A stretch of 61,163 bases of DNA, the filler included, from Collodictyon triciliatum (lineage: Eukaryota): assembly GCA_043381765.1 (NCBI GenBank). It is 4 parts of 4 records of this genome, joined end to end, with 100 filler letters (N's around TTAATTAATTAA, not from the genome) between each part and the next. Parts side by side here need not be neighbours in the genome. Positions count along the whole stretch, not along the records: positions 19,395 to 37,321 come from JBHJMP010000553.1; 3 more parts are not named here. One strand, given 5' to 3'. The notes beneath the pieces are model-generated. The model searched no databases and was not told the origin of the DNA. It saw only the letters and a list, made by a program, of their open reading frames with translations. A program made the position numbers and the translations under genes. Positions within the stretch are counted from its first letter, which is position 1, and every line of letters starts with the position of its first letter. Below, piece after piece: positions 2,396-37,876 of this stretch.

Positions 2396-2993
2396 AGACA
2401 AGAAAAATTCTCTGGGAAGCGGCGCTGATGAGCATACAGATATGATGGACTGCTACATAAACCCACCCAAACAAACAAACAAACAAACAAACAAACAAAC
2501 AAACAAACAAACAAACAAACAAACAAACAAACAAATGGTTGGTGGCTGTGTCTGGAATCAAATCCATTTTCTAAACTTGGAATTTATTTCTTCACAGGAT
2601 TTTGGCTGCAACAGTTGAGTCAAACCCAAATTATAAGCACACTATAATACAAAAAGCTGTATTGAGTTAATTATATTATGTGATAGAATTAGGATATGTC
2701 TATGAGCAAGGATTTTCCTACTTAAGCATTCTAAAAAAAGAATTTCCAAAGAGATGAACATTAGATTTGCCCAAATTCGTCGCATCGAAATTGCTTAATA
2801 AGGAAATGGCATCTCCCCACCAACGGCCCCAATCGTCACTTGCTTACACACACATTGCAACACGCAACTTTTCCTATACAACACACAACCACAACCAACA
2901 AAGGCCAATCAGATCAGCCCAATCAATTCATCACTCATCACTCATCACTCATCACTCGCCGCTCATCACCTAATCGCAGACCAACACCCCCAC

Positions 2994-3653
2994 ATGCCGC
3001 ACCCACACACGCCCGCAACAGCCGCATCACCGACGAGCGAGTCGCACTCACCCGAACCAACACCCCCGCCCACATCTGCGAGTGCGCTGCTCGATGAATC
3101 GCTGCTTATCGAGATCGCCTCGCTTCAAGACTTTGAGAGCCCCGGCTTTATCGACTCCCTCTATGCGCTTTACTTTGCAAAAGTCGACGCTGCACTCGTT
3201 CACATCCACCAGGCCATGTTTGTTTTCCACTCCCCTGTCCTCACCTCCTGCCCCGTCCTACTCTCCTCCGTGATTACTGCCGCACCTTTCATGATCCTTT
3301 CAGCTAGCTTCTGCCTCATTTTTTCTTTTTTTTCCGCCTTACAGCCTCGATGGCAACTTCTCTGACGCACTGCGATCGGCACACCAGTTACGAGGCAGCT
3401 CAGCGGCAGTTGGGGCGCTCCAAGTGTCTGAAGTCTGTGCTGAGATTGTGCAGCTGTCAAAAGCAACCAACGCTGCAGGTCTGCCTCTCTTGCTCTTTTT
3501 CTTTTCTTCTTATTCCGCACACAGCATGATGAGTGATTCCCAGACTCACACACCCGCACATATCTCTCAGGTATCGGCGCTGCCCTCCACAGGCTTCACA
3601 CGGCGCACTGTTTCACCAAACAACAGATACAAATCTTCTTTCGCCTGCATTGA
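2994..3653 (+). CDS. Histidine-containing phosphotransfer (HPt) protein, AHP/Ypd1-like, 3 exons
   Basis: Spliced product LLDESLLIEIASLQDFESPGFIDSLYALYF...LDGNFSDALRSAHQLRGSSAAVGALQVSEVC. It matches the HPt HxLKGSSxxxGA motif with the phospho-accepting His intact. Stop at 3651-3653. Confidence 0.88.
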
Positions 3654-3728
3654 GTCGCACCCCCACGCCAGCACGCTTCCAGAGTATTTGCACGGCCCTG
3701 CTTCTGCCTCCATCTGCTCATCCCTTCC

Positions 3729-6021: not shown

Positions 6022-9000
6022 TCACGCTCCAATCATCTGCTGTAAGCGAAGCACATCATCCTCGGCCCTGTCAAACCCAAGCTGCGCAGCCATCTGATAA
6101 TAGGCCAGCGCCTGGGGATAATCCTGCTCCACCCCGCTTCCAGCCTCCAGGCTTGTCGCATAGTTTGCAGCCCCGCTCGGGTCGCCGGCCTCGGCTGCGG
6201 CTCTGAAAAGCTCGGCTGCTTTCTGGAAGTCCTGGTTGACATACTTACCCTTCTTGTAAAACAGGCCCAGAGACGTCATTGCCTGCGGATGCCCGCTTTC
6301 GGCTGCTCTTCGGACGTAGTAGAACGACTGCTGTGCATTGGATTCTACGCCCACACCGCGCTTGTAAAAGAGAGCTACCGTGACTTGTGCTGATGTGAGT
6401 CCTGCGTCGGCAGCTTGTTTGTAGAAGTGAAACGCAAGGGCTTCGTCCTTGGCTACGGTCACCCCATTCTCATAGAACCAGCCGATTTTCTCCTGTGCCA
6501 AGGAGTCGCCATCCTCGGCTGCAATCTTGTAGTATTTAAACGCCTGTTCGTCGTTTCTCTCCACTCCAATACCGTTCTGGAAGCAGGCTGCAAGAAACGC
6601 CGCAGCCTGATTCTCTCCACGTTCAAAGGCATCCATGTATGACCGGAATGCGCGCTCATAGTTTTGCTCCGCACCACGGCCGTTTTCAAAGCACCAGCCC
6701 AGGTGAATGAGAGATTCGAAGTTGCCGTGCTCAGTGGAACGGACAAGCAAATCAACAGCCTTCCTGTCGTCTTGTTTGACTCCTTCTCCCGTAAGGTAGG
6801 CCAGGCCGAGGTGCATCTATCAAGTGAAACAGAAATTTGGCAAATATTCATTTGTGAATAAAGACTCTGGATTTACAAAATTAGATGCTACCAATAATAA
6901 ATAAGTAATGCGTGAATCAAGTCGATTTCTATGTATCAAGGCAAGTAAATGGCAAGATGAGAGGAAGTTTGCTTTGTTTTCGTTCTTTACTTGCGCAATA
7001 ACATCGCCTTTGGTAGCAGCCAGAGAAAAATAGTACGCAGCCTTCATCAGGTCCTTTTCAACTCCGTCACCGTCTCGATATAATATCCCCAGATTGAGCT
7101 GGAAATATAAAGTGCTTAGAATAGATGTGAGATGAAAGGAGTATGTACCCACACAACCAGGCTAATTTTTGGCGAGTACAGCGTGAGTGCACTTCTTTTT
7201 TTCTTTTAGTAAAAGTAAATGAATAAAAATAAAATAAAAAGAACAATTAAACAGGGCAGAGCTGATAGAATAAAAAGAGCTAAATAAACATTTTCCCCCT
7301 TTATCCCATTCCAAGAAGGAGCAAATAAATCATAAAGTAGAAACCTGTGCCAAAGAGTCCTGCTTTGCAACGGCCGACAAAAGTAATTTTACAGCCTCTT
7401 CCATGTTCTTATCAGCCCCGACACCGAATTTGTAACATAGTGCGAGATTCGACTGCGCTGTGGCATTCCCCATTTTAGCTGCTGTCTGGAAATACAGGAA
7501 TGCTTGCTCGTAATTCTTTTGAACACCTATTCCATTTGCAAAGCAATATCCAATATGTGTGAAAGCAACAGGGTCCTTTAGCTTGGCAGCCTCAGAGAAG
7601 TGACGTACAGCCGCTTTCACGTCTTGAGTCACACCAATTCCTTTCTGTGTATATTGATTTTAGTATAGTTAACTCTTGACGAAATGTAGAGGAGTATCAA
7701 ATGTTTTTATTTTGGAGACTAGTGTCGGCGGCCAATATAATACCGCCCCAATTGGGAGTAAAATTTGTAAAGGTGATAAGACAAAAGAAGGAGAAAAGAA
7801 AAGAAAGAATTAAAAGAAATGATTACATAAAGAGCCAGTGAGTGTTTCATCAAACAATTATTTTTTTTATTACCTGATAGCATATACCAACATTCACGAG
7901 ACCAGGTGGATATCTCTTATCGGCAGCAGCGAGGTAGCATCGATAGGCTTCTTCTGGGGACTTTGCAATACCTAGACCATGCTCGTGAAGGAACCCCAAT
8001 AATACGAAAGCTCTAATCATTATTTTTTTTTTATAATGAGGACCCAAATTACACTCCATATTGCACAATAGTAGTTTATCTTTTATCCTATAAACTTTGT
8101 AATAATTTCCCTCATATAATTACCATACAGACCTTGCATGCCCCTTCTCTGCAGCCAGTTTGTACAAACGTGCAGCTTCTGTGTAGTTCAGAGCAACTCC
8201 GCGTCCATTTTCATACATAGTCCCTAATTCTGTGATTGCTTTCAAGTCTCCTAGTATTTTATTCCGTCAACTGCTTAGTTGATAAACAAATAAGTCATAT
8301 CAAATATACCAATTCAGAAAAAAAAAATCAAGATAGGGTAGCTAGGAAGTGCAAAACTCTGGCAGTCTAACCCATCTGTTGATAGATTATACCTTGCGAT
8401 GCCGCTCTGCTAAATAGCTCGAATGCATGTGCATAATTTGCTGTTACTCCTAATCCATATGCATAACAGAACCCAAGACTTGCCTAGGGCATTATGAATT
8501 CATAATTTGAGTGTTTTTCTTAAAATTAATTGAAGTAAGCAAATAAGCAAATAAACCCGTGATACTTTACTGGGCACTTTGTTGATTTTGGGGCAAACAT
8601 AATAGTGGCAGAGATCATATTTCCTATTATTGTTTTTTTGTTTGCTTATTACTCTTATTAAAAGAAGCATCTGTCAGTTACCAAAGCGCGTATGTGACCG
8701 AGCGACGCAGCCTTTTGGTAAAACTCCACAGCTTTGATGAACGACACGGAAGTCCCGAACCCTTTCTCATAGCACCAACCGATGTTGGTCATGGCCTCAG
8801 GGTCCCCACGGGCCGCCAAGGAGAGATATTGCTGGAATATGCCGGCTGGAGGCATGTTTGCCATGAGACTGGGAAGCGGAGCTGCCACCTCATCCAGATA
8901 CTGTGGGGACGGGATTGGCTGGTTGAGGCTGCTGAACGGGTTTGGATTGGGAGCCGCAGTCGGCTGGATTTGCTGGCCATACGACCGCACTGCGCGAAGT

Positions 9001-12000
9001 GGCTGCTGCTGGCGGTCCCATGTCTCAAGGGGCTCGAAGGCCTGTGTGAGTTGGGGCCCCAGAGGAACAGACCGCCCAAAAGCAGGTGCCTGCTTGTGAG
9101 CTTGATGATAGATTGGCTGTTGTTGCAGCTGTGATACAGATGCGTGTGGGTTGTGTGTAATATGTGCCGTGCTTGCCTGGTGAGGAGTCTGGACATGACT
9201 CGGGAAACTGCGCTCTTGTGCAGCCATCGCTGGGATGTCATGTGGTATGCGCTGGTCGGGCTGTGTGAGTTCGAGAGAGCCGTGGGGGTAATTGCGGTGA
9301 TGATGCTGGTATTGTCTGTACCCCTGATGGGGCTCGTGTGAGACGGTCGGAACGTATTGGCGTGCTGAGTTTGACTGGAATATCGCTTCATCGATTTGCG
9401 GCTCGGCCTCTGCGTACTGACTGCCGTAAGGGTTGTGGTGCGTTGGTTGCTGACTGTAGTTGTGGACAGGCTTTGGCGGGGCGGTTTGGGCCTCGGTCGG
9501 GGCATATGGCGTCTCTGATGACTTGAGCAGGCGTATTTCCTTCTCAGCCATGCAAGCAACAAGATTGGCCTTTGCAACTTCGTTTCCGAGGTCGCTGGCA
9601 CGCTGAAAGTAGCGGATGGCTGTATCTATATCTTTTTCCACGCCGGTGCCGTTGGAGTAGCAGCACGCTAAGTTGGTCAGCGCAGCAGGGTCGTTCTGGT
9701 CACTTGCTACGCGGTAAAACTGAACAGCTAGTTTGTAGTCGATTTCAACCCCGAGTCCGCGCTCGTAGCACCAGCCCAGATTGGCTTGACTGCGCGGGTC
9801 ACCTTTGCCGGCAGCAACTTTGTACCATGTGACAGCGGCCGAGTGCTCTCCTACTTGGCTGTAGCAGAACCCAAGGTTGGTCTGTGCCCGTGTGTCGCCC
9901 TGGTAGGTGAGATGGCTTAATATCTGTGCATTTTGCGATAATAATCTGATAGCAACGAAGAGGAGGAAAAAGGGGAAATAGTAGAAAAGCATTTGTTTTT
10001 TGTTTTTTTCCAATGACGGAAAATTCTGTTCAAAATATTTGATGAAACTATTATGACTGGATCGCTGTTCACGAAAGATAACCAATGAATATCTTGGTCA
10101 ATTTGTATTATCAATCTTTTTGAAAGAAAGAAGAAAGAAAAGAAAAGAAAACACGATCAAGTGGGTCAATACCAGATTTGCTGCCTTTAGGTAAAACTCG
10201 ATGGCCTTTTGGGTGCTCAACTCAACACCATATCCCTTTTCGTAGCACCACCCTATATTTGAAAGAGACCGAGCGTGCTCATGCTTTGATGCGAACGTAA
10301 ACAGTTCGTACCCTCTTTCATGGTCTTGAACAGCACCGTGGCCCTCGATGAAGCAGATGCCGAGGTGGCAGATAGAGTCAAGGTCATGGAAATCTGCAGC
10401 CAAAGTCCACCATTCGACTGCTTGAGAATAGTTCTGGTCAAAGCCACATCCATTGTAATATGCATAGCCCATAATCAGCATAGCAAGAACGTTTCCTTGC
10501 TGCGCACAGCCACGAATCACATCCAAAATGCGCAAGAATTGCGGTTGAGGAACACTATCCAGAAAAGACCGCATTGCACGCTCGGAACCATCTTTCCATG
10601 TCGATGTTTCCTTCAGAAGTCGAACTAGATAGGTTGTTGTATATTTACTCTGGGTGGGGAGACTGTCCAACAAGATTCCAGTCAGCGCAGCTTCGCTCCC
10701 CGAGTGGTTAAATGGCGTACTCGAGTGTTTTGGTCGAAATGAATGTCTCTTCGGTTTTGCAGGTGGGTTGTCTTTTTCAGTTTTTGTGAAATTGATTTCT
10801 GGTCCAAGAGGATTACTTTCACTCAGCTTTCTTATATTTCCATATCTAACGTATTCATTTTCTCCTCCTCTATCCGAGATCTGAAATTGAACATGTTGAG
10901 CAGATTCTGCAGTAGTCTTTTTAGCTTGGGGGACTTCATAATCTTTTCTGACTAGGTCAGCAGGGGTAAAAGAACGAGCAATGGTTTGCTGCACATTAGG
11001 GGATGCATCTACGGGCTGTGAAAATCCCATAGTCTGTCCATATGCTTCGCGATTCTCAAATTTTTTTGGGAGAAAGTTGGAAGCGGCTGGCTTAGCTGCC
11101 TCCTGAATTACTGATGGGATTGTCTTGGAGCCGTAATGAGAGGGAAGAGAATGTTCTGGTTCATCGATATTGGTTTGGCTTGTAAACTGCTTGTCTGTTT
11201 GTGATTGTGATGCAAGCAGGGATTGCTGTGATGGTAAGAATGAATGAGTTTGACTCTGACTTTTTGTGATAACTTCCAGTAAAGTCTTTGAAGTATCCAA
11301 ATGTCGCGGGGTGACGTATATTTGATTCAAATATGGGGATGAAGATATTTGCGTTAGTTTGGAGGCATAGTCAACATACAGAGCTATCGACGGAACAGTA
11401 GTGTGGTCTGTAAGTGCTCTGATCTGGGGTAGGTATTGTAAGGTAAATCCGTTCCATTCCTTTTCAATAAGAGACCATTCCATGCTGATTTTGTCCCATT
11501 CCTTCTCCACATTATGTGACAAAAAGTCTCGTTGACTCAATAGCGATTCATAATGCTGTTGGTAAAAACGAGCCTGAGTTTCCAAATTCATTATTATCCT
11601 CGAGTCTGTTTCTTGTTCGATGGATGAGTATATGGTTTCTTTATCATTCTGGACTTTTTCAATCTCTTCAGCCAAGTATTGCCACTGCAGTTCAAGAAGT
11701 TTAAGCTGAGGGTGATCGGTGAACCTCCATTTATCACAAAGCTCTCCCAGCTGGATGGCCTTCTGTCTTAGTAATTTTTCAACTTTAAGCAACCCATCTG
11801 CGCTCGCTGAGCCACGAGCCGATAGGTTTACCTGCTGGTAGCTGACGGCTCGTATCAAATTCTGAATAATCTCATGTTCCGAAGTAATGATTCCGAGTCC
11901 AAATCTCCATTGCAAGTCGGGTGTTAGCGTCTTTCTTGAGGAGTAGAAATCCAGGAGCCCCACGAGGCGCTGATGATTGGATGACTGTCTTCCTTGGTAT

Positions 12001-12977
12001 GCCCATGTCTTGTGCTCTGGTTCATCTACACTGACTATAATGTGAGTGAGAAACTGGATAATAGAGATGGCAACTCTCCAATTCAAGCAAGAAAGGTTGT
12101 TGTGATTCAAGACCGGGACGAGACATTCGACTAGAAAAGGATACTGCTGGATGTATGGTGTTAATTTTTTGAGCAACAGAACGGTAGGAAACCAAGCTTC
12201 GAATGGGGTCATCTGAGAACAAGAAGCTGACGCCAATGTGATCAAATGTGACAGTATTGATATGATTTCTTCTCGTCCGGGAGAAAATGGTGAGTGTGAG
12301 GATGAAGCTGGGCCATCCTCAGCAAAGTGCGATGTTTGACCGTAGGCCTTATACATCTCCTTGGAACTTATGGACGAATGGGATTGCCCTGGCTGCGGCC
12401 ATTGAGACAGTTGCCTGAAGAGCTGGATTGCAGACGGGGGAAGCGAGAGAAGAGGCTCCATAGCAATGAGGCGGCGGCACGTCTCCCAACAAAAGTCCAC
12501 CGACAGCAGGACGTTTGGATCGAGCTTTGCAGGGAAGTTTCTGCAGTGGCCAATGACCACTTGCAAGGACTGCACGTCTTCTGGAGACAAAATCTGCGTT
12601 GCATCAGTCGGGATTGTCGAATGCAGCACGTTGTGTGGAGATGAGGACTCCAGGAACTGCATAACGAGCAGTTGGCACAGCTCCCGCAACAGCGCCACGG
12701 TCGGGGCAAGATGGGAGTCATGTCCTGGGAAAGAGTGTTGGCTGTGTTGCAGGATTTTCTGGCAAACAAACTCTGCGGCTGCGCATAGATCAGACACGGA
12801 CTGGATTTGAGAAAAGTGTGGATCTTGAAGGACTTGTGCGGCCTCCTTCAAAGCCTGCTGCTGCTGCGGGGTTTCCAGGGCACATTGCACAAGGATGCTA
12901 CGCAGATCGCGTCCGTTGGCACTTGCTGCGTCGTGTCGGGCCGGAATTACCGGAAACTCTGCTCGGCTAGCGTGCAT
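6022..12977 (-). CDS. Large multi-exon SEL1-like (SLR/TPR) repeat protein
   Basis: Many A..NLG.CY..G.GV.KD...A..YY..AA..G repeats across the exons between 6022 and about 10520, a Q/P-rich spacer, and a long non-repeat N-terminal exon starting at ATG 12977. Confidence 0.9.
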
Positions 12978-13729
12978 CTGCAGACGAAACAGCCGTTCGA
13001 GGTTAGTTTGCTAAGGGTGGTTAATAGTGCTCTTTTGAACGGCTTTTGTCGGGTCATAGGGCTAAAGGCAAAGTTGTGTTGGCTCTAACATTAATTAATT
13101 TTTTTTTTTTTTTTTTTAGAGGAAGTATTGATCTTTTTCTTTTCATTTTCTTTCTCTTCTTCTTTTCCTTGATCTCCGAAATAAGTGCAAAAACGATAGA
13201 AGGACTCGGTCGGTTGGATTAGCGTCACTTGGGTGGGTTTGGCTTCTTTGTTTTTTGGCTGGTTTGCTGGTTCGCGTTTGCTGTCCCGCGCCTTCGTCCT
13301 TGTCTGATTTGATCTGGGATGCACACAGGGGACATTTCTCTGTGATGGAGACACTATTATTCATGAGTTTATTTATAATCTGGAATATATAATATAATAC
13401 CTCAGTATCCCATTAAAACAAATTAAATACTAAATAGTATATCTACTATTACAACTAATACTACAATAAATAAAATACAAATCCATATTATACAGTTAAA
13501 AATATATGGTAATTCGTCTCATGTTCCTTTTCGCCTTTTTTTCGGTGAAACATCGGCTCGGCATTCGAGCAGTCATAATGTGGGTGGGACGCAAGGGTGA
13601 AGGTTGGATTTGAGCGCGACTTTGGTGTACCTGACCCGCCAAGCATATAACCCCCGCCTTTCCTTATCTTCATTCCTTTTTCTCTACAATTTCTTTTATT
13701 CCTTTATTCTTTTTTCTTATCCCTTTTTC

Positions 13730-14690
13730 TTTTCTTTTCATTTCTTTTCATTTCTTTTCATTTCTTTTCATTTCTTTTCATTTCTTTTTTCATTTCTTTT
13801 CATTTCTTTTCATTTCTTTTTTCATTTCTTTTTTCATTTCTTTTTTCCTTTCTTTTTCATTTCTTTTCTTTTCTTTTCTTTTCATTTCATTTCTTTTTTC
13901 ATCTCTTGTTTCCCTTTTTTTCTTTTTCCTTTATTCCTTTGCTCCTTTTTTCTTTTTTCATTTCTTTTTTCATTTCTTTTTTCATTTCTTTTTTCATTTC
14001 TTTTTTCATTTCTTTTTTCTTTTTTTCATTTCTTTTTTCATTCCTATTTCATTCCTATTTCATTCCTTTTTCTTTTTTTCATTTCCTAGTTTCTTTGTTC
14101 TTTTCTTATTCGTTTCTTTCTTCTTTCTCTTTTCTTTTTTCATTCCTATTTCATTCCTTTTTCTTTTTTTTCATTTTTCATTTCTTCTTTCTCTTTTCTT
14201 TTTTCATTCCTATTTCATTCCTTTTTCTTTTTTTCATTTTTCATTTCCTAGTTTCTTTGTTCTTTTCTTATTCTTTTTTCTTATTCTTTTTTCTTATTCT
14301 TTTTTCTTATTCTTTTTTCTTATTCTTTTTTCTTATTCTTTTTTCTTATTCTTTTTTCTTATTCTTTTTTCTTATTCTTTTTTCTTATTCCTTTTTCTTA
14401 TTCCTTTTTCTTATTCCTTTTTCTTATTCCTTTTTCTTATTCCTTTTTCTTATTCCTTTTTCTTATTCCTTTTTCTTTGTTTCTTTGTTTCTTTATTCCT
14501 TTTTTCCTTTTTTCCTTTTTTCCTTTTTTCCTTTTTTCCTTTTTTCCTTTTTTCCTTTTTTCCTTTTTTCCTTTTTTCCTTTTTCTTTGTCTCTTTGTTT
14601 CTTTGTTTCTTTGTTTCTTTATTCCTTTCTTCCTTTTTTTTCGCTGCCTTTGTTTCTTTGTTTCTTTATTCCTTTCCCCTTTTTTTTCGC
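13730..14690. repeat. Compound pyrimidine-rich low-complexity tandem repeat
   Basis: Successive arrays of TTTCA-, TTCTTA- and TTCC-containing units. Confidence 0.9.
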
Positions 14691-14746
14691 TGCCTTTGCG
14701 TCCTCGCTCTGCAACTTGGGTAACTTCATGTTTCAATCGACAACAG

Positions 14747-16993
14747 ATGGACCAAGAGCCCAAACGCGCTCGATTAGACCCCCTAGACGACTATGAGGCT
14801 GGCTTCTTGAAAACTTTGGAGAATGTGGGGGCGCAAGTAAAGCACATCCGGATCTTATACAATGCAGAGCGCTTCTTGCGCATTTATGCGGAAGGAAGGA
14901 AATCTGCCGACATTGAAACTCTGCACTCAGAGACCGGTGCGCACAGAGTGGAGGTCGATCGTAGAGCAAGTGACGGATTCACAATAGTCAGCCCCATCGG
15001 AATTCGCATTCTCGCACGTCATGCCACTATCTGGAGACGCATTCTGCATAATGTGGAGAGCATAGAGCTTGTGGTGGAGCAACGAAGTGATGGGGATGAT
15101 GGTCATACAGATGAAGGCTTTGGAGAAGCCCTTGCTCAAATTATCAGTGCAGATGTCGAATTAATTCATCTGTATCGGATCCGAATCGTGGTGGAGGGCA
15201 AGGCACGAAAAGCCTCCAGAAATGTTAGTATCATCGAAGCATTGTCAAGGATTAAGGAGATGAGAGGGCTTCATAGTATCGAATTAGTTGGCTTGGAGCC
15301 ACAAGCTGGATTCATCAAAGGATTAGACGCATTTCCAAGACTAAATCGTTTATTTCTCGAAAGGATGAGGGAGACCAGGATACCGGATGATATATTTGCA
15401 TATGCTAGCCAACTTGAGGATGTCTCGTTTGGGCAAAATCAACTTGGAGACATCCCTGACGGGCTTATCTTTTGCCCAGGATTAACACGCCTTGATGTTG
15501 GATTCAACAATCTTTCATCCTCTCCGCTATGGACAGGAAACTATGCTAATGCAGCCGGGCTGGTCTCAGTTTTGGAAAGACTTCGGTGGCTTGATATTTC
15601 TGGAAACGGATTTACAAATATCCCTGTTGTTGTTACCCAAGGCAAAAGACCAAACCTCAGAACTCTTATTGTTTCCAATAATATGATTAAACTACTTCCC
15701 GACGCCATGTTTTCGAGCTTGACCAACCTCGAGTGCCTCAATATTTCGCACAATCAGATAACATCGCTTCCAACCAATTTTGTAAAGCTGAATAACTTGA
15801 AGGAAATTAACATGTCTCAAAACCCAATACAAACCCCGCTGTCGATTCTTGCAAAGTGCAACGGTCTTCGTGTGATAAAAGCGGATCAGAATAGTGTTTC
15901 CATGTTGCCCCGCTGCCCTCCTAATATCGAAACTATAAGTCTTGTGGGAAACAGTATCACCCAATTACCAAAAGGTTTTTTCAATTACCATGCCTTACGA
16001 TGTCTCCATCTTTCTAGCAACGCAGTTTATTCCATCCCTGTAGACGTCACGACACTAACTACATGCGAAAACATTACTGCTCTGGGCCTTTCACTTAATC
16101 GATTCTCAGTTTTCCCCAAACCGGTCCTATCATTTCGAAATCTGAGGTCGCTCTCTTTCTCTCTTGACCCCCGTATATTCCAAAGAATTGAGAGAGCAAG
16201 AGAAGAAGAAATGGCTCGTATCAACCAATTAAGATATCACCGTCAACAGACTTATGGTGTAATGAATGTGCCTGTATTTTTCAATCCTATGCAGGAAATG
16301 GCACCGAAATATAAAGAGGAGGTCATAGCTCCAATACCACTCCGTCGAATTGCACAATCCCTCCCTTCACTTTATCATCTTTCCATTAACCTGTGTGGTT
16401 TGCGGTCTTTTAGGGTTGATGAGCTTTCTCGCCTAGACTCTTTGGAAATTTTGGACCTCAGCAATAATTATATAAGCCACGTCCCAGATTCAATTGGAGT
16501 AGGATTTCCTAAACTCCGCACCCTCAATCTGAGCCGAAATCAAATACGCATGTTGCCAGAAGATGTCATGATAGAACATATGACTAGACTGCAGTATGTA
16601 GATTTGAGCAACAATCATCTAACTGTCATTCCAGGGAAATTGAAAAAGTATCTTGGGTCCTCTTTGCTGGTACAAAACAATCCTTACTTGGAGGTAGATG
16701 CAAAACTTGCTGGGAACGAGCTGAAGTGGACAAACTTTAGCTGTTCGTCTTGCAACTATCCTGCACTGCCTGATGGACTATCCCTCTTCACAAACCTTAC
16801 ATCCATCCAAGCATACAATAATTTCATTTCTTGTTTGCCAGACCCGTTGTCGAAACTTTCTGGGATTGTTGATGTGGACTTTTCTTTTAACAAGTTCAGC
16901 CATTTTCCACTGCAGATTTTTGGGTGGTCTCGTCTTGTGCGGCTGTCTTTGAATTCTAATCAAATTACCTGCATAGATGATACATTTGCCTGA
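14747..16993 (+). CDS. Intronless leucine-rich-repeat protein (about 748 aa)
   Basis: About 20 LxxLxLSxNxIxxLP repeats. The likely start is MDQEPKRARLD at 14747; the upstream ORF extension is repeat-derived. Confidence 0.88.
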   Translation: MDQEPKRARLDPLDDYEAGFLKTLENVGAQVKHIRILYNAERFLRIYAEGRKSADIETLHSETGAHRVEVDRRASDGFTIVSPIGIRILARHATIWRRILHNVESIELVVEQRSDGDDGHTDEGFGEALAQIISADVELIHLYRIRIVVEGKARKASRNVSIIEALSRIKEMRGLHSIELVGLEPQAGFIKGLDAFPRLNRLFLERMRETRIPDDIFAYASQLEDVSFGQNQLGDIPDGLIFCPGLTRLDVGFNNLSSSPLWTGNYANAAGLVSVLERLRWLDISGNGFTNIPVVVTQGKRPNLRTLIVSNNMIKLLPDAMFSSLTNLECLNISHNQITSLPTNFVKLNNLKEINMSQNPIQTPLSILAKCNGLRVIKADQNSVSMLPRCPPNIETISLVGNSITQLPKGFFNYHALRCLHLSSNAVYSIPVDVTTLTTCENITALGLSLNRFSVFPKPVLSFRNLRSLSFSLDPRIFQRIERAREEEMARINQLRYHRQQTYGVMNVPVFFNPMQEMAPKYKEEVIAPIPLRRIAQSLPSLYHLSINLCGLRSFRVDELSRLDSLEILDLSNNYISHVPDSIGVGFPKLRTLNLSRNQIRMLPEDVMIEHMTRLQYVDLSNNHLTVIPGKLKKYLGSSLLVQNNPYLEVDAKLAGNELKWTNFSCSSCNYPALPDGLSLFTNLTSIQAYNNFISCLPDPLSKLSGIVDVDFSFNKFSHFPLQIFGWSRLVRLSLNSNQITCIDDTFA

Positions 16994-19294: not shown

Positions 19295-19394
19295 NNNNNN
19301 NNNNNNNNNNNNNNNNNNNNNNNNNNNNNNNNNNNNNNTTAATTAATTAANNNNNNNNNNNNNNNNNNNNNNNNNNNNNNNNNNNNNNNNNNNN
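19295..19394. other. Artificial contig-joining spacer (N-TTAATTAATTAA-N)
   Basis: Stop-in-all-frames 12-mer embedded in Ns, identical at three places in the window. Confidence 0.95.
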
Positions 19395-19515: not shown

Positions 19516-20641
19516 TCGTGTGGTTTTTGTGCAAAACCAAAGGGAAACGTGGTTTTTGTGCAAAACCAAAGGGGTCGAACTACTCAATTGATATAACGTA
19601 TTATCCCTGTTTACATTTACCTCTATCATTTTTTGGTGAAAGGGAACCCAATCGACCTTTTGTGTGGCCCTCGAAAAGCTTTCTATGTGTCGCATTAATC
19701 ACCCGTCCTATATGCATATATGACAACAAGGAAACGGTGATTCCCTTTAAAACCCCAATCCCTGGTTCTTTTCATGCAGCTTTAGGCAAAATATGCCAAT
19801 AGGACACCAGAAAAGGCCCGGATATGGATATATATAAGATGCCATCTCATCCAAGAATCTTGCAGCTGCACACAGTCACCCAGAAGGGCCAAAACTGGTA
19901 TATAAGGCCTTTGCATATGTGTATATTTAAGATAAACGAAGAGATATACATTTGAATAACGAGGATAAAGACGAAGAAATAGGAATGAAGGGTATCTATC
20001 AAAAACCATAAAATGTCAAGTGGGTGAAGACAAAAATTCGTAGGTAATTAGAGTGCCTTCATCAACTCTGAGCCCTTGGATGAAGCAAACAAGAGGAAAT
20101 ACCTAGCATCTTTTGACATAAAGTATGCAGATATTTCCATTCTTTCAAAATATAAAGGAACCTATCCATACACTCACTTATCTGAAATATTTTCAGTTCA
20201 TGTCGAATAAACAATAAAAAAAAAAAAAGCAAAGAGAAAAAGGAGAAATAAATGAACACAATTTATCCAAGTGTTCGGTGATTTCAAAATATCAATTCCG
20301 AGATGTTAAAGCTTTTTAATTTTTTTTAGTCGGTTTCTATTTTAACAACACCATGATGCCAGCAGTATGTAAACTAGACAGCTAAAAAGGACTTTCAGAG
20401 ATAACTCCTTCCTTCACATCTAATGTAGAGAATAAAAGAATTTACAAAGGCAAAATGTAGAAGATATACCATTTCTAAATAAAGGTATGATTATGACGCA
20501 TGATTGATTATATAGTATAATCATATCCACTGTTGTATTTTGTGATTCAGGGAAGCAAGAAGTGGGAATGTTATGGTTGTCTTTGTTATAAATGTATTGG
20601 TAGATTTATATCGGGAGTATTCCCTTTTTCCGTTCAATACT

Positions 20642-22137
20642 CTAGAACATAGAACACTTATTCTTTCTATCGGGTGATTTTGAAAATCCCAGAGTAATAC
20701 GGGCAGCATCTTCAAATACATTCCTTACATTCACTCGAGTTAGAGCAGATGATTCTATGTACTTTAAAGCACCAATATCGGAGGCCATTCGACGACCCTT
20801 TCGTTTGAAAGAAGAAGTATTTCAATACCAAATAGACCAATTGCATAGCGAATATTTTTTCCCTTTATTCGATTCAAAGTGCAAGAGGGTAAATTCACAA
20901 GGAGTATGAATCGAACAAAAGTACTGATATTAATACTAGTACTACTACAAATAACATCAATACTACTGCGACTAATACTAATAAATCAACTCCATTTTAA
21001 AAAGGACAACAATAATGAACAACATATATAGCTGTACACCTTGATTATTTTACCTCTTCTTTGGTTACAAAAAATGTCTCCTTGCTTATTTGAGTTTCGG
21101 TCAAATGCAATTCATCCCTTAAATCCACCTTTGTTCCAACCAATAAAACTGGGATGTTATTTGCATATATTTTCGCTTCAGGAGCCCACTATGAATGTTT
21201 TGAACAAATCAATTCGAAAGTGCTCAGGTAAATCAGAATATTGGAATACTGTCAATAAAAATACAGACCTTCTTCTTTACATTTTCAAATGAAGATTGGT
21301 TCATAACTGAGAAACATATGATAACAACATCTTTATTTCGATAAAACAGAGGATGTATGACACTTTCAAATTCATCGTGGCCTATGAGTGGCCATCAATA
21401 TAAAAAAAATGCGAACTTGAGTTCTATTCATAGTGCAAAGACCATTTCTTTGAATCGAATAAAGGAAAAAAATAGTGCAAAGACCATTTCGCAAAATAAA
21501 TAAATACATAGATGAAAATGACGAGGTATTTTTATCTCCATAATCTATAAAGAACAAATCCGCAATACTTTTTTTACACTTTGGAAAAGAACACAGTCCT
21601 ATGTTAAAGGATATATCTTTTGTTTCGAACGAACCTGTTGAGTCCGAGATTCCCAGTGTCACTTGCTCTCCATCAACATCTATTTCTCTCATCATATAAT
21701 CATAAACGGTCGGAATATATCCTTCAGGGAAAGTGCAGGATGTATAAGTCATCAATAGGGATGTTTTCCTATGGTATATGTGTATAAAGATTGCACATTA
21801 AGTTTGCACTCAGTACCCTCCACCAATCCATCATCTATCAATTAATTTTCAAGAGCCGACGTCATACTATTTACACATGGCTAATTTGTATTTTCGGTCC
21901 ATTTTAGACCTACGAGAAGATATACTTTCCATTCTCGAATGTTTTTCAATAAAGAGATCAAACCTTTTTATCCTTCTCTATTCGATTCAAGAGGAGGGTT
22001 ATATGCTTTTCTTGTGTAGTTGAAAAAAAAACATAGCAAAAGAAGACTTGGCCATTGAAGAATTCTTTTTAAACCCACCCACTTCCTGAATCTCCAACCA
22101 CAACGCACTCCAGGAGCTTCTTACTGGATGGATCCAT
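20642..22137 (-). CDS. Atypical Rho-family small GTPase, 198 aa, 5 exons
   Basis: Exons 22137-22079, 21768-21635, 21381-21269, 21188-21054 and 20797-20642 splice in frame. Motifs: CVVVGDSGSGKT, YIPTVYD, DSTGH, CFSV...SFENVKKKW, VGTKVDLR, YIESSALT and C-terminal CAAX CSMF. Confidence 0.93.
21430..21490 (+). mobile_element. 5'-truncated poly(A) retro-insertion with 19-bp TSD
   Basis: ATAGTGCAAAGACCATTTC at 21430-21448 and 21472-21490 flanks TTTGAATCGAATAAAGGAAAAAA. Confidence 0.85.
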
Positions 22138-22596: not shown

Positions 22597-25500
22597 TCTA
22601 ATCTACAACTCACAATGTGAGTAAATGTGGTGATCACACCGAGAGAGACATAACGCAGGGGAGCAATAAAATAAAAAAAATAAATCATTATGAAAAAGAA
22701 AAAGTCTCTTTTGCTGAGAAATAAACACTGCGAAAGACAAAGGACACATTTTCTGAAAAGTAATGCTATTAAACTGGGGCTCTTTCCTTCTTCTCTCGAC
22801 CTGCCACATCCTGAAGCCTGAAAAAAAAAACACGAAAGCCATCGAAAAGGGCGATCCTGAGAAGGACGAGACCGCCTTCCAGGAGACCGGTGCCACAACC
22901 CTGCCCCGTGGGATGCCTACTAATCGTACGCAAAACGAGAAGGCTGACACAGCCAACCCGAAGAGCGAAAAGGTCACTTTATCACATCCCCTGCAATACA
23001 ATTTATGCACCAAGACACACCGACGAACAAGACGCCGGCTGCCACCGACTCGTGAGTACGAAAAACTACTAATAAGACGGAGCGGGCTCTTTGAAACGAA
23101 TAAATAACAACGGGGAATAAAGACTTCTTCTCCGCCACCCAGCCACCAAGTAGCGTCCGTGCAAACGATGGCCAGCGAACCAAAGCCAACATCTCCACCA
23201 TCCTGCACAAAGTTGAAAGGGAGAATAAAAAATAAAAATAACGGGGAATAAAAAAGACGGATCGAGCCCAAGCAACCGATCCACTTGTAGCAAGAGAGCA
23301 TGAGACACTGGAGAAAGGGTTTATATCATTCAAGCTCAAGCTATCAACTCATGGGTAGCAACATACTTATGAACATATTGCTCGATATTAGTTGTTCAAA
23401 TTCATTCACCCGTTTCTTTTTCTTTTTTCTTTCTCTTTTTCAGCCTGTAAATGGATAAACTTCATTACAAAGGTTGTGAGGAAGTTGGTTTTATCCCTTT
23501 CAAGGCATGACACTTTTTATACAACGAAAGTGTACCCATATATAATGCGGTTTATTGCACAGACAACCGTCGAGTTAAATCTGGATTGACAAGAATAGGA
23601 GCTTTGATAAATCCAAGAAGCAATTTGAAAAATATAATAGTATAGTTAGTATATATAATAAGGTTAAAAATACATAATAATCTTGACATATTCCTATAAT
23701 CAATTTATACTTTATTTACCATTTATGTAATATTAATTCAAAAATCCAAAAATCCAAACAAGCCGTTGTCTTTGCCCAGACAGAAACCACCCTGTAAACC
23801 TGCCACCAAATATGCATTTCAAAAAAGCATACATTCCGCACTTGCGGCAGTAATCATGTTGCTTGGGGCCGATATCTTGACTTTCAGTCGAAATGGCTAT
23901 ACGGCTGTCCTTTCGAACTCGCCGAGTCGGCTCTCAGTGTTTTGTCTCAAATCATTTATAAAAAACTTTGTGTGTTTGTTTGCCGCAATGCGCGCATTTT
24001 GAAAGTCTCGGTAAATGCTTAATTTTACATAAATTGATTTTATGCAGTTTTTAAATTGATTAATTGACTAAATTTTTATTAAGATTGAAAACTCGGTAAG
24101 GAAAAAAAAAAAGATTGAAAACTCGGTAGTTTTCTAAAGGAAAAAGTAAAACAAATACTTTTAGATGAAGAAAAGAAAACGCCTTGAGTCTGGGAATCTA
24201 AAGTCTGCAAAACCACACTATCCGAATGTGAAAACATCTCGAAAGTCGATTGTAAAGAATGCGAATGACTATGACAAAATCAACGATACGGTTTTATTGT
24301 GTCATAATTTGGTTACCGACACTTATCTGTTTGCAAGATGTTACATATTGAAATCACAACAGCTCCCAAGAATCGATGAAATTTTTTTTTTGTACGCTTT
24401 AAAGACAGTCGTAATAGTTTCACAAGATAGACCCACAAGATGAAAGCATCCAGAAATGAGAGAAGACATGATGACATTTTATCTCTACGATTTTCGATTC
24501 CTTTTGTCCCGATAAGAATGCTTTCCGTTGGTTGGACTGTCTCATGCATTACCGTACTAGGCGAAGCAAATGTTAACAGCTTATCATAATAACACTGAGG
24601 AACATTATGTAAAGAGGCTACTGCGCTTTACAAATCAAACAGTTCCTGAAGATGAGAATATTACAGAAGCTATTAAAAAAGGCAGAGTTACGAAGTTAAA
24701 AAAAGCCATCCTCAAGAAACTCGAAATACCGGAACAATAAAAAAAAAGTGGGCTGTAATACAATTGAATCGTATCATTATCAGCGATATTGTAAATGGTA
24801 TCGAATATGACGCCAAAGTCAATCCAAACAAGTACATTTCATGTCTGATTTACATGAATCGCATTTTTGGGGACATTAGAGCCAAAAATTTTCAACCAAT
24901 CTCTATAAGAGAACTAACAATATACCATGTTATATTACTCTAGATACCGCATGTTTGATAGATATATTAGTATTATCTAGAAAAAAAAATCATTAATGAA
25001 GAATATATCAGGTTGCAAAGAAACCCTATGGGATGACTTCTTTGAAATGAAGAAGAGGGTCTTTCATCAAAGAGATTACAATTTTAAATATATGATACAA
25101 ACAGACAGCTTGGCGGGTCATTATTGTTTGAAAAGAAATGAATTTCAAATTCAAAATTCAAATATAATCAAAAAAAAAAAAACCAAGAATATGTTTTATA
25201 TGAACTTTCCGAAGAGCATTTATCTTTATTAGCGAAAAAAAAAAGTTGGAGTGGACGCAGGCAAGTTTAATTTGGTTTACACGGTGGATGAGACAAGTAA
25301 GAAATTACGTTACACGGCACACCAAAGAAGACATGATAGCAAATCTCTTAAAAATCACAAAATACTCTTGCGCGAGAAAAAAGAAAAGTACAATGCTTCA
25401 GGGATATGTATGGCAACATGTTTACAAAGTGCTGTTTCTTTTGGTCCCATTACTTTTGAAGAGAATCAGTGGTTTGAGACATCAAGAGTATCTTTAATCG

Positions 25501-26132
25501 ATTTAGAGACATAATTGAGTAAACATAATTCATACACGGTCGATTATGAAAAATTTCGAAAATATGTATCTATGAAATCAAGATACCAGATAGAATTATC
25601 CAGATTTTATGAACAAGTAACTTTTCGAAAGATGAGATGGAGACAGTATGTTAATACAAAAAGAAGTGAAATTGTTTATGAACCGAATCGAAAAGACAAT
25701 TGGTAAGGATGTTGTACTGGCGTATGGAGACTGGAGCAGAAGATCTCCGATGAAACATTTTATGCCAACAACCGGAAGAGGATTACGAAAAATACTATCC
25801 AAACGTTTTGATACCAGTAAGTGTAAATGGATTTAGAACCTCCAAGGTGTGCTGCAACTGCGAAAAAGAACTGGAATATATGACACTGAAAGGAAACTCA
25901 AAAAATGTATAGATGTCTCATGTGTAAAGAATGCGATCGCTCAGAAAGCAAACAAAGTGTATTCTTGACAAGGGACTTTATCAGCACTAATAATATACTC
26001 AACAAAGTTCTTTTAACCCTTCAAAATATGCATACACCTCGCTCTAAAAAACAATAGGCTGTCAGGTCTTTCCTGGCAGCCTTCACCACTGCACGGTCAT
26101 GGTGAAAAAAGTGGTGAGACCTTGGATACTAG
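22597..26132 (+). mobile_element. Fanzor-carrying transposon, copy A (non-autonomous, possibly Helitron-type; ends inferred)
   Basis: 22690-24385 is clearly homologous to the reverse complement of 51231-52934. It contains the Fanzor pseudogene. Candidate ends are A|TC at 22597 or 22602 and hairpin + CTAG|T at 26129-26133. Confidence 0.65.
24165..26057 (+). pseudogene. Fanzor1 (TnpB-derived RuvC nuclease), frameshifted
   Basis: Fragments in successive frames: MKKRKR...VKTSRKSIVK; FKYMIQTD; RuvC-I VGVDAGKFNL; YTAHQRR; FRKMRWRQY; VVLAYGDWS...MPTTGRGLRKILSKRF; RuvC-II region VNGFRTSKVCCNC; CLMCKEC; RuvC-III TRDFIS.NNIL; stop TAG at 26055-26057. Several stops and frameshifts. Confidence 0.9.
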
Positions 26133-26152
26133 TGCACAAAGTTTACCAATGG
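26056..26152 (+). ncRNA. Candidate Fanzor omegaRNA (scaffold plus putative guide)
   Basis: 11-bp stem 26056-26066/26072-26082 with one G-U pair. Second stem 26082-26088/26100-26106, or 26083-26090/26110-26117. AGGTCT at 26064-26069 is complementary to AGACCT at 26117-26122. The structure starts at the Fanzor stop codon. Confidence 0.65.
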
Positions 26153-26595
26153 AAAGATTGATATACTCTAGTTTAAAAAATATTAGTGAAATAGTTTTAC
26201 TCTTGAAGCAAAGAATTGCTATACAAATTATATAATTTTCATATTTTCCAGAAATAATATCCGGTTGTGATGGTTTGAGTGATAGTCAAATTGGGGTGGC
26301 TGTGTCTGCTCTTGGGATGGTGAAGCACGCCAACCTCCCCGCCTCTTTTGCGCTTCTGATCACTTGCACCCACACAATTAAAGGAGGACCCATATGCTGG
26401 TCGGTCTTCAACAACGATGATATTAGCTCAGGCCTGATATGCACTTCTTAGCTTATATTCATGTTTATTAAGAAACACAAAAAATGACGGAGACTTCCCT
26501 TTCTTTTTTTTTTTCCTTTATTCGATCGAGATTTCCCTTTCTTATTCTTTTCCCTTTTTATTTTCTTTGTCTTTGTCTTTATTGGATTTCTTTTA

Positions 26596-26656
<61 letters not shown>

Positions 26657-37321: not shown

Positions 37322-37420
37322 NNNNNNNNNNNNNNNNNNNNNNNNNNNNNNNNNNNNNNNNNNNNTTAATTAATTAANNNNNNNNNNNNNNNNNNNNNNN
37401 NNNNNNNNNNNNNNNNNNNN
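37322..37420. other. Artificial contig-joining spacer
   Basis: N-TTAATTAATTAA-N. Confidence 0.95.
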
Positions 37421-37876
37421 NAAAAACAAAAAAACAAAAAAAAACAAAAAAACAAAAAAAAACAAAAAAAACAAAAAAACAAAAAAAACAAAAAAACAAA
37501 AAAAACAAAAAAACAAAAAAACAAAAAAACAAAAAAACAAAAAAATAAAAAAAACAAAAAACAAAAAACAAAAACCAGAATCAAATACTCTTCCATTAAT
37601 CCATACGCCATATTGCGATTGTTACTATACCATTCTCAATCATTTATCTTATATTTCAAAAATAAGAATCAAGAGAATGATATAATTAGTAGTATATACT
37701 TGCACCGTTATTTGTTTCTTGACATCGGTATATACTTAATATCAAGTATATACATCGATAAGATTACATAACCTTTCATTATTTTTATATGCATTTTTTT
37801 ATTTAAAAAAAAGCTGATTTAAACTCTCGTTTTTTTTTCTTCCTTCCTTCCTGTTTCGTACTATCTCACTCACCAG

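Follow-up and report, generated by a model that had tools for sequence, protein, structure and literature searches.

A probable dead Fanzor1 gene copy in a repeated mobile element of Collodictyon triciliatum, with intact relatives on giant-virus contigs

Fanzor1 proteins are the relatives, in eukaryotes and giant viruses, of the bacterial RNA-guided nuclease TnpB, and these eukaryotic RNA-guided nucleases are under development as compact genome editors. In the parts of Jiang 2023 (PMC10530073) available to us, 3655 Fanzor clusters are catalogued, N-terminal nuclear localization signals (NLSs) are described as common among Fanzors, and an alternative Glu is essential in a Fanzor2, a group that shares the rearranged Glu. 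The available part of Yoon 2023 (PMC10711439) defines Fanzors by a DPG motif in RuvC-I together with a Glu that precedes the zinc finger by six residues. For an endogenous giant virus of Chlamydomonas, an account available in part (PMC11398304) describes Fanzor1 accompanied by an IS630-Tc1-mariner transposase, units pared down to Fanzor, and degraded pieces within the host genome. Here we analysed 61,163 nucleotides of Collodictyon triciliatum (GenBank assembly GCA_043381765.1; 4 parts joined end to end, hereafter the window, with positions counted along its whole length), in which a Fanzor1 gene copy of full family length and broken frame occupies 24165-26154 on the + strand, within the part from JBHJMP010000553.1. 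We put at roughly 0.9 the probability that this locus is a dead Fanzor1 pseudogene in a repeated mobile element; this insertion between intron-bearing host genes is most likely old, and either non-autonomous or decayed. Fanzor1 pseudogenes and giant-virus Fanzor1 genes are already known and the window copy is a further member; because thousands of copies have been catalogued, one more dead copy adds little.

Membership of the family was established from a read-through of 24981-25706 with stops as X (P0001). Searched against 1.84 billion representative proteins, P0001 matched 447 at E ≤ 1e-3 and 84 at E ≤ 1e-10; the full-length matches measured about 585-700 amino acids (aa), and a few short, closer fragments reached 50-80% identity. 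A 90%-clustered collection yielded four proteins of comparable length at E ≤ 1e-10, with 32-55% identity. An alignment and hidden Markov model (HMM) built from 29 full-length P0001 matches (A1) was applied to the whole window translated in all six frames, where it matched 24201-26039 with 283.6 bits (independent E-value (i-E) 8.6e-88) over profile positions 4-597 of 616, with additional pieces in the other two frames marking the points of frame shift. Beyond this locus and a second copy (below), A1 found nothing in the window with i-E < 0.85. The closest intact full-length relative, P0004 (634 aa), matched the locus by tblastn at E 1.3e-64; in an alignment reaching from its Met1 to its final residue, 272 of 614 aligned codons were identical (44%). 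Family HMM, tblastn and frameshift-aware alignments with five guides together delimit the pseudogene.

Matches to solved structures place the family among Fanzor1 proteins. Compared with the PDB, the A1 profile matched PpFz1 (E 2.4e-102), SpuFz1 (8.9e-101) and GtFz1 (6.3e-78); the next of its nine matches at E ≤ 1 were Cas12-like zinc-finger stretches, at 1.2e-4 and worse. An AlphaFold2 model of P0004 (mean predicted local distance difference test score 84.2) superposed on SpuFz over its full length, with template modelling (TM) scores of 0.78/0.81, and superposed on PpFz and GtFz too; against TnpB, Cas12f and mimivirus Fanzor2 the TM score was just 0.2-0.3. Among ten full-length relatives, Pfam recognized Cas12f1-like_TNB above cut-off in three and below it in five more. 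An earlier, sequence-only reading of the window had proposed a Fanzor1 gene scattered over small open reading frames (ORFs) at 24165-26057, joining into about 600 codons, and had named frameshift-aware and HMM searches as the check. Those searches match the family profile to the locus and reach solved Fanzor1 proteins via intermediates; the Fanzor1 identity is borne out by the profile matches to solved structures and by the P0004 model, which has the Fanzor1 fold (WED, REC with long helical insertions, RuvC), and the fragments do join as one reading, with 614 codons aligned to P0004. The proposed start stands, while the end does not, since the homologous reading continues past a TAG at 26055 to about 26154.

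All motifs named in the sequence-only reading are present where it had placed them. The locus opens with MKKRKR (24165-24182, +), a basic, putatively NLS-like N-terminal cluster found by translation; P0004 begins MKRKK. IQTD follows near 25095. The RuvC-I catalytic Asp is kept (25254-25256, +, in GVDAG) and corresponds to D372 in P0004 numbering, which is invariant in A1. Codons 25254-25262 read DAG where all 29 relatives have the family's DPG, so that P373 is replaced by Ala; this is decay in the window copy, not a trait of the family. YGDWS..PTTGRGLRK lies in the frame starting at 25702. Further on comes the segment VNGFRTSKVCCNC, in which the codon at 25829-25831 is GGA and the first CxxC spans 25850-25861. 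The GGA (+) occupies the alternative RuvC-II Glu site, six residues before that CxxC. As had been claimed, it now encodes Gly; the relatives carry Glu there in 29 of 29 cases (E530, A1), and a loose-end consensus of contigs from a public freshwater metagenome (run X1) also reads the family Glu. Sequence and translations show both halves of the zinc finger (25850-25934, +) intact, CCNC at 25850-25861 and CKEC at 25923-25934, with a frameshift between them. The RuvC-III catalytic Asp is kept as well (TRD, 25974-25976, +; D581, invariant in A1), and the first invariant Asn after it, two residues on (N583), is Ile in the window copy. The invariant columns of A1 are the Asp and Pro of DPG, E530, the RuvC-III Asp and two Asn after the RuvC-III Asp.

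Frameshift-aware alignment of 24100-26300 with guides P0004, L002, P0011, L013 and L050 located the damage. All five guides agreed on in-frame stops at 24441 (TGA), 24513 (TAA), 24558 (TAG), 25139 (TGA) and 25512 (TAA), and on eight frameshifts, near 24714-24738, 24908-24929, 24979-24991, 25113-25116, 25193-25235, 25656-25671, 25816 and 25889-25901; the TAG at 26055 is either a ninth frameshift or the end of the frame. Taken with the three substitutions at invariant columns (P373 to Ala, E530 to Gly and N583 to Ile), this pattern of lesions points to neutral decay and to a copy that cannot act as a nuclease. Because contigs of other copies in run X1, a second freshwater metagenome (X2) and X4 (coded organism) have a different letter at two of the five stop positions (24441 and 24558) and length differences of 1-2 bases at five frameshift sites (24908, 25116, 25234, 25670 and 25812), those lesions are private to the window copy.

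We considered whether the gene might be alive, its breaks being short introns or its stops being read as sense. Introns do exist in this host, and a GTAAGT...TTTAG string occurs at the 25816 break. However, the shifts are of 1-2 bases, with homologous residues abutting directly on both sides, which leaves no room for introns. Reassigned stops are likewise at odds with the evidence, because TGA, TAA and TAG all occur, face different residues of the relatives, and TGA or TAA closes five long host ORFs in the window in the ordinary way. At two of the stops a sense codon stands in other copies, and the catalytic Glu is gone; a living gene is scarcely credible.

Nor do assembly or sequencing errors in a gene that is intact in the organism account well for the breaks. 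The scaffold is a draft with 13 N-runs, and the frameshifts near 24738, 24979 and 25235 fall in runs of 9-10 A, as such errors would. The remaining frameshifts lie outside homopolymers, and five stops and three invariant-column substitutions are unlike homopolymer errors. Moreover, a contig of run X9, an RNA library, is letter-identical to 24220-24464, stop 24441 included; we take it as independent support for the assembly over 24220-24464, not as evidence of transcription. An intact gene hidden by errors is therefore highly improbable, and we retain the view that the window copy is a pseudogene.

This pseudogene is part of a longer repeated unit. Self-blastn matched 22690-23110 and 23414-24391 to 52924-52511 and 52252-51223 on the - strand at 76-80% identity. 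Since 22690-24391 thus matches a second copy, the repeated unit takes in at least 1.5 kb upstream of the ATG. The upstream repeated segment accompanying the Fanzor gene (22690-24164, +, by self-blastn) is apparently non-coding: six-frame Pfam found no family and no coding potential in it. Its portion 23400-24100 is multi-copy in run X4 as well. The second copy (51216-52924, -; tblastn, HMM and blastn) is truncated, consisting of the upstream segment and the first ~70 Fanzor codons, and gives way to an (AACAAA)n tract and a gap in the assembly. There, tblastn placed P0004 residues 2-78 on 51443-51234, and the A1 HMM placed profile positions 4-73 on 51413-51216 (-) with i-E 4.8e-10.

Variant copies are abundant outside the assembly. 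When four public runs were compared with 23400-26400 at a likeness of at least 85%, the stretch was covered by 455 contigs in X4, 152 in X1 and 43 in X2, with identities to the window copy from below 90% to above 99%. Of the words sampled from 23400-26400, the share found in a public run never exceeded 0.11, so the word shares carry no claim about habitat or strain. Summed repeat depth in X4 drops sharply after about 26127, which puts the right boundary of the element near 26130. Upstream, an exact-match search found an 18-nucleotide (nt) word in two direct copies (starts 24081 and 24111; 24081-24128, +), 37-84 nt before the ATG, which is possibly a promoter element. One X4 contig joins 23937 to 24129, skipping 23938-24128 and with it the first 18-nt copy and the second minus its last base. 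On these counts the element is a diverged, high-copy family. The sequence-only reading had taken the copy to be dead, and the five stops, eight or nine frameshifts and three invariant-column substitutions support this; it had also taken the family to be multi-copy, as the second copy in the window and the 455, 152 and 43 variant contigs corroborate. It had further suggested that intact copies or a consensus could be reconstructable; the existence of less damaged copies is hinted at by contigs without several of the lesions.

The element lies in sequence of eukaryotic appearance, AT-rich and in draft state (1261 N and 13 N-runs in the window). Ras/Rho-family exons occupy about 20200-21800 (-) in two frames (Pfam Ras, E 1.6e-9 and 4.1e-9), a WD40 exon lies near 29.9 kb (+), and the flanks are otherwise long stretches of AT-rich, microsatellite-rich DNA without ORFs. 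With Ras/Rho and WD40 exons in its flanks, the neighbourhood is cellular and intron-bearing, not a viral island. No transposase could be detected in the window, so the element is most likely an old insertion, either non-autonomous or decayed, that lies between intron-bearing host genes. The transposase was sought by six-frame Pfam over 4.5 kb on each side of the locus, which found none, by tblastn, whose best match had E 1.9, and with a profile of 11 viral transposases, whose best match in the window (i-E 0.59) fell at an unrelated place.

A different origin, in which the locus sits in an integrated giant virus instead of being a cellular transposon copy, draws on the company kept by its relatives. 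P0004-like genes occur on giant-virus contigs of 57-255 kb, home to the nearest intact relatives, and the Atlas clusters nearest P0004, which carry PF26935, are 92-100% Viruses, most commonly Nucleocytoviricota. Fanzor1 elements are also common to an endogenous giant virus and its algal host, as far as the available part of that report goes (PMC11398304). Integrated viral DNA would, however, be expected to show dense intronless genes, whereas the flanks hold intron-bearing exons and AT-rich, ORF-free DNA; the 4.5 kb on each flank of the locus yielded no viral hallmark family, and the element is highly repeated at 10-25% divergence, like transposon families. We therefore consider integration of a virus improbable and treat the locus as a transposon copy in cellular DNA.

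Relatives in metagenomes were sought with P0004 alone and with a narrower alignment (A3). Of 594 candidate stretches in the scan, 423 were confirmed as relatives, and 80 were retained. Compared by tblastx with the best of 85 virus and metagenome loci fetched, the window shared 40-48% identity over the best matched segments; because identity to the relatives fetched is 40-48% at best, the window element forms a separate subfamily. In one of these loci (L001), an ORF with DDE_3 and HTH_28 domains lies in opposite orientation 320 nt upstream of the Fanzor gene. This ORF, at 2638-3678 (-) of L001, encodes a transposase of IS630/Tc1-mariner type, and its surroundings include a ribonucleotide reductase, a glycosyltransferase and other genes. 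Relatives of the L001 transposase occur in 19 of the 85 loci, including the whole group closest to the window.

Two candidate signals at the viral loci were set aside. The mimivirus early-promoter word AAAATTGA stood upstream of the viral Fanzor gene in 1 of 70 loci and was dropped. A conserved word ~50 nt upstream of the viral ATGs was considered as the left end of the element and dropped, the DDE_3 ORF lying further upstream. We also observed that 17 of the 85 loci have a truncated Fanzor frame or lack a single long motif-bearing one (16 have none, and L009 is cut short). These may be broken copies among virus-like contigs, or cases in which a simple ORF rule missed the frame or motif.

The viral loci also yielded a candidate omega RNA, the guide-bearing RNA of these systems. 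In six loci of the closest viral group, the last ~110 nt of the frame and ~55 nt past the stop are conserved far above the flanks; this conserved, structured RNA at the Fanzor 3′ end ends in ...GGTGTAAA. The same six viral or metagenomic loci share a common structure of 49 predicted pairs, and compensatory changes occur in 10 of these pairs. From the six loci we built a covariance model (R1), which was run without filters over both strands of the whole 61-kb window. Its best match, 26054-26198 (+), falls at the 3′ end of the gene and overlaps the end of the frame (16.1 bits, E 0.0084, with E-values being rough); the next match had E 1. Two stem-loops within it, 26056-26082 and 26083-26117, have sequences unlike the model, yet they pair. 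Only the 5′ half of R1 matched, its 3′ domain being unrecognizable in the window. For the segment 26050-26135 the folding energy is -32.9 kcal/mol (z -3.58), a value equalled by none of 200 shuffles. A search of the window with Rfam gave no family. We read 26054-26198 as a putative leftover of the family's omega RNA, or as a more compact form of it; the score is modest, and part of it may reflect coding homology.

Several observations weigh against a dead Fanzor1 copy in a mobile element that once encoded a guided nuclease. Pfam found nothing relevant in eight separate fragments of the locus or in the 242-aa read-through, and P0001 alone matched no PDB chain at E ≤ 1; for these reasons the Fanzor1 assignment runs via intermediate sequences. 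An inverted-repeat search around the locus returned A/T-run matches and no terminal repeats; neither inverted terminal repeats nor a target-site duplication was identified in the window. Three or four of the frameshifts sit in A-runs of 6-10 bases and are possible assembly errors. The omega-RNA match is weak (16.1 bits), and its matched 5′ half overlaps homologous coding sequence. RNA-guided cleavage by members of the window and viral clade, finally, would follow by analogy from other Fanzor1 proteins.

An intact member of the family would be a protein of ~620-635 aa with a basic, NLS-like N-terminus and a RuvC domain split by a CxxC...CxxC zinc finger; its predicted catalytic triad is the Asp of DPG, the alternative Glu that lies six residues ahead of the zinc finger, and a further Asp. 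It would bind an omega RNA transcribed jointly from the gene's own 3′ end and the element's right end, as in published Fanzor1 work, and its basic N-terminus would bring it to the nucleus. There it might cut DNA complementary to the omega-RNA guide, next to a target-adjacent motif (TAM). Such guided cutting would favour persistence of the element, which a Tc1/mariner-type transposase would move.

What the locus may add is a family. With at least 423 relatives in one metagenome scan the family is abundant, and it has an intact viral sister clade with a well-supported omega-RNA structure. Because the host family is high-copy and some copies are without the window copy's lesions, a working member may exist. 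We raise tentatively, as a possibility that we still find doubtful, that a freshwater eukaryote harbours a distinct high-copy Fanzor1 subfamily with intact, possibly active members and a compact omega RNA, exchanged with giant viruses that carry a sister clade with a Tc1/mariner-type transposase. If true, it would supply a new natural pair of Fanzor1 and omega RNA and would indicate virus-host transposon traffic in a host group for which none had been described. Beside the Chlamydomonas account, in so far as it is available (PMC11398304), the locus is an extra data point for the sharing of Fanzors between giant viruses and hosts.

Several features of the window were recorded in passing. Small GTPases carry DTAGQE. 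The Ras/Rho gene at ~20200-21800 (-) reads DSTGSFE and is either an atypical GTPase or a decaying gene. The intergenic DNA is full of very long homopolymers and microsatellites, among them a T-run of ~57 within 26595-26656, just downstream of the element, and repeats of (ATT)n, (TC)n, (AAAC)n and (AACAAA)n. Three gaps (19295-19394, 37322-37421 and 51052-51151) consist of 44 N, TTAATTAATTAA and another 44 N; because TTAATTAATTAA is an all-frame stop linker, the stretch is a joined pseudomolecule. The other gaps in the window are plain N-runs of 100, 267 or 320.

The region 6025-16990 has long open frames and a GC content of 42-48%, against ~30-38% elsewhere in the window. It encodes Sel1-repeat proteins (6025-7161, -, and 8661-13010, -) and a leucine-rich repeat (LRR) protein (14702-16990, +). 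For the 970-aa Sel1 frame (10101-13010, -), the nearest Atlas clusters are all bacterial Sel1, at a weak score of 0.80, and it is possible that the Sel1 and LRR genes are horizontally acquired or are fast-evolving repeat genes. A TGA at 10098-10100 is the single in-frame stop between the 970-aa and a 479-aa Sel1 frame; stop-codon reassignment was considered for it and rejected, as the ~100 nt around it are AT-rich, of low complexity and intron-like.

Set beside described systems, the window family stands closest to SpuFz1 of Spizellomyces punctatus (8gkh), PpFz1 of Parasitella parasitica (9cf0) and GtFz1 of Guillardia theta (9cer), which belong to the same profile family and have in common with it the DPG, the alternative Glu, the CxxC...CxxC zinc finger and the RuvC-III Asp. 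It differs from them in that P0004 is just 19-23% identical in structural alignment and in that the window copy has become a pseudogene, its catalytic Glu replaced by Gly; unlike the three, the window subfamily also has an insertion of ~30 residues after RuvC-I, found in the fragments P0002, P0005 and P0007 too. The Chlamydomonas giant-virus elements, likened here by description from the available part of their report (PMC11398304), are similar in having Fanzor1, a right-end guide region like the one predicted for the window family and, in full-length elements, a Tc1/mariner-type DDE partner such as L001 and its like carry; the difference is that no transposase remnant was found in the window. 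With Fanzor2 of mimivirus (9b0l) and TnpB of ISDra2 (8h1j) the family has in common a RuvC domain that is split and bears a zinc finger and, putatively, a 3′-terminal omega RNA. P0004 superposes on these two with TM scores of 0.21-0.23, however, and no such chain is among the nine profile matches at E ≤ 1, Cas12-like zinc-finger stretches excepted; in contrast to them, the window family runs to ~630 aa and has large helical insertions, as in Fanzor1.

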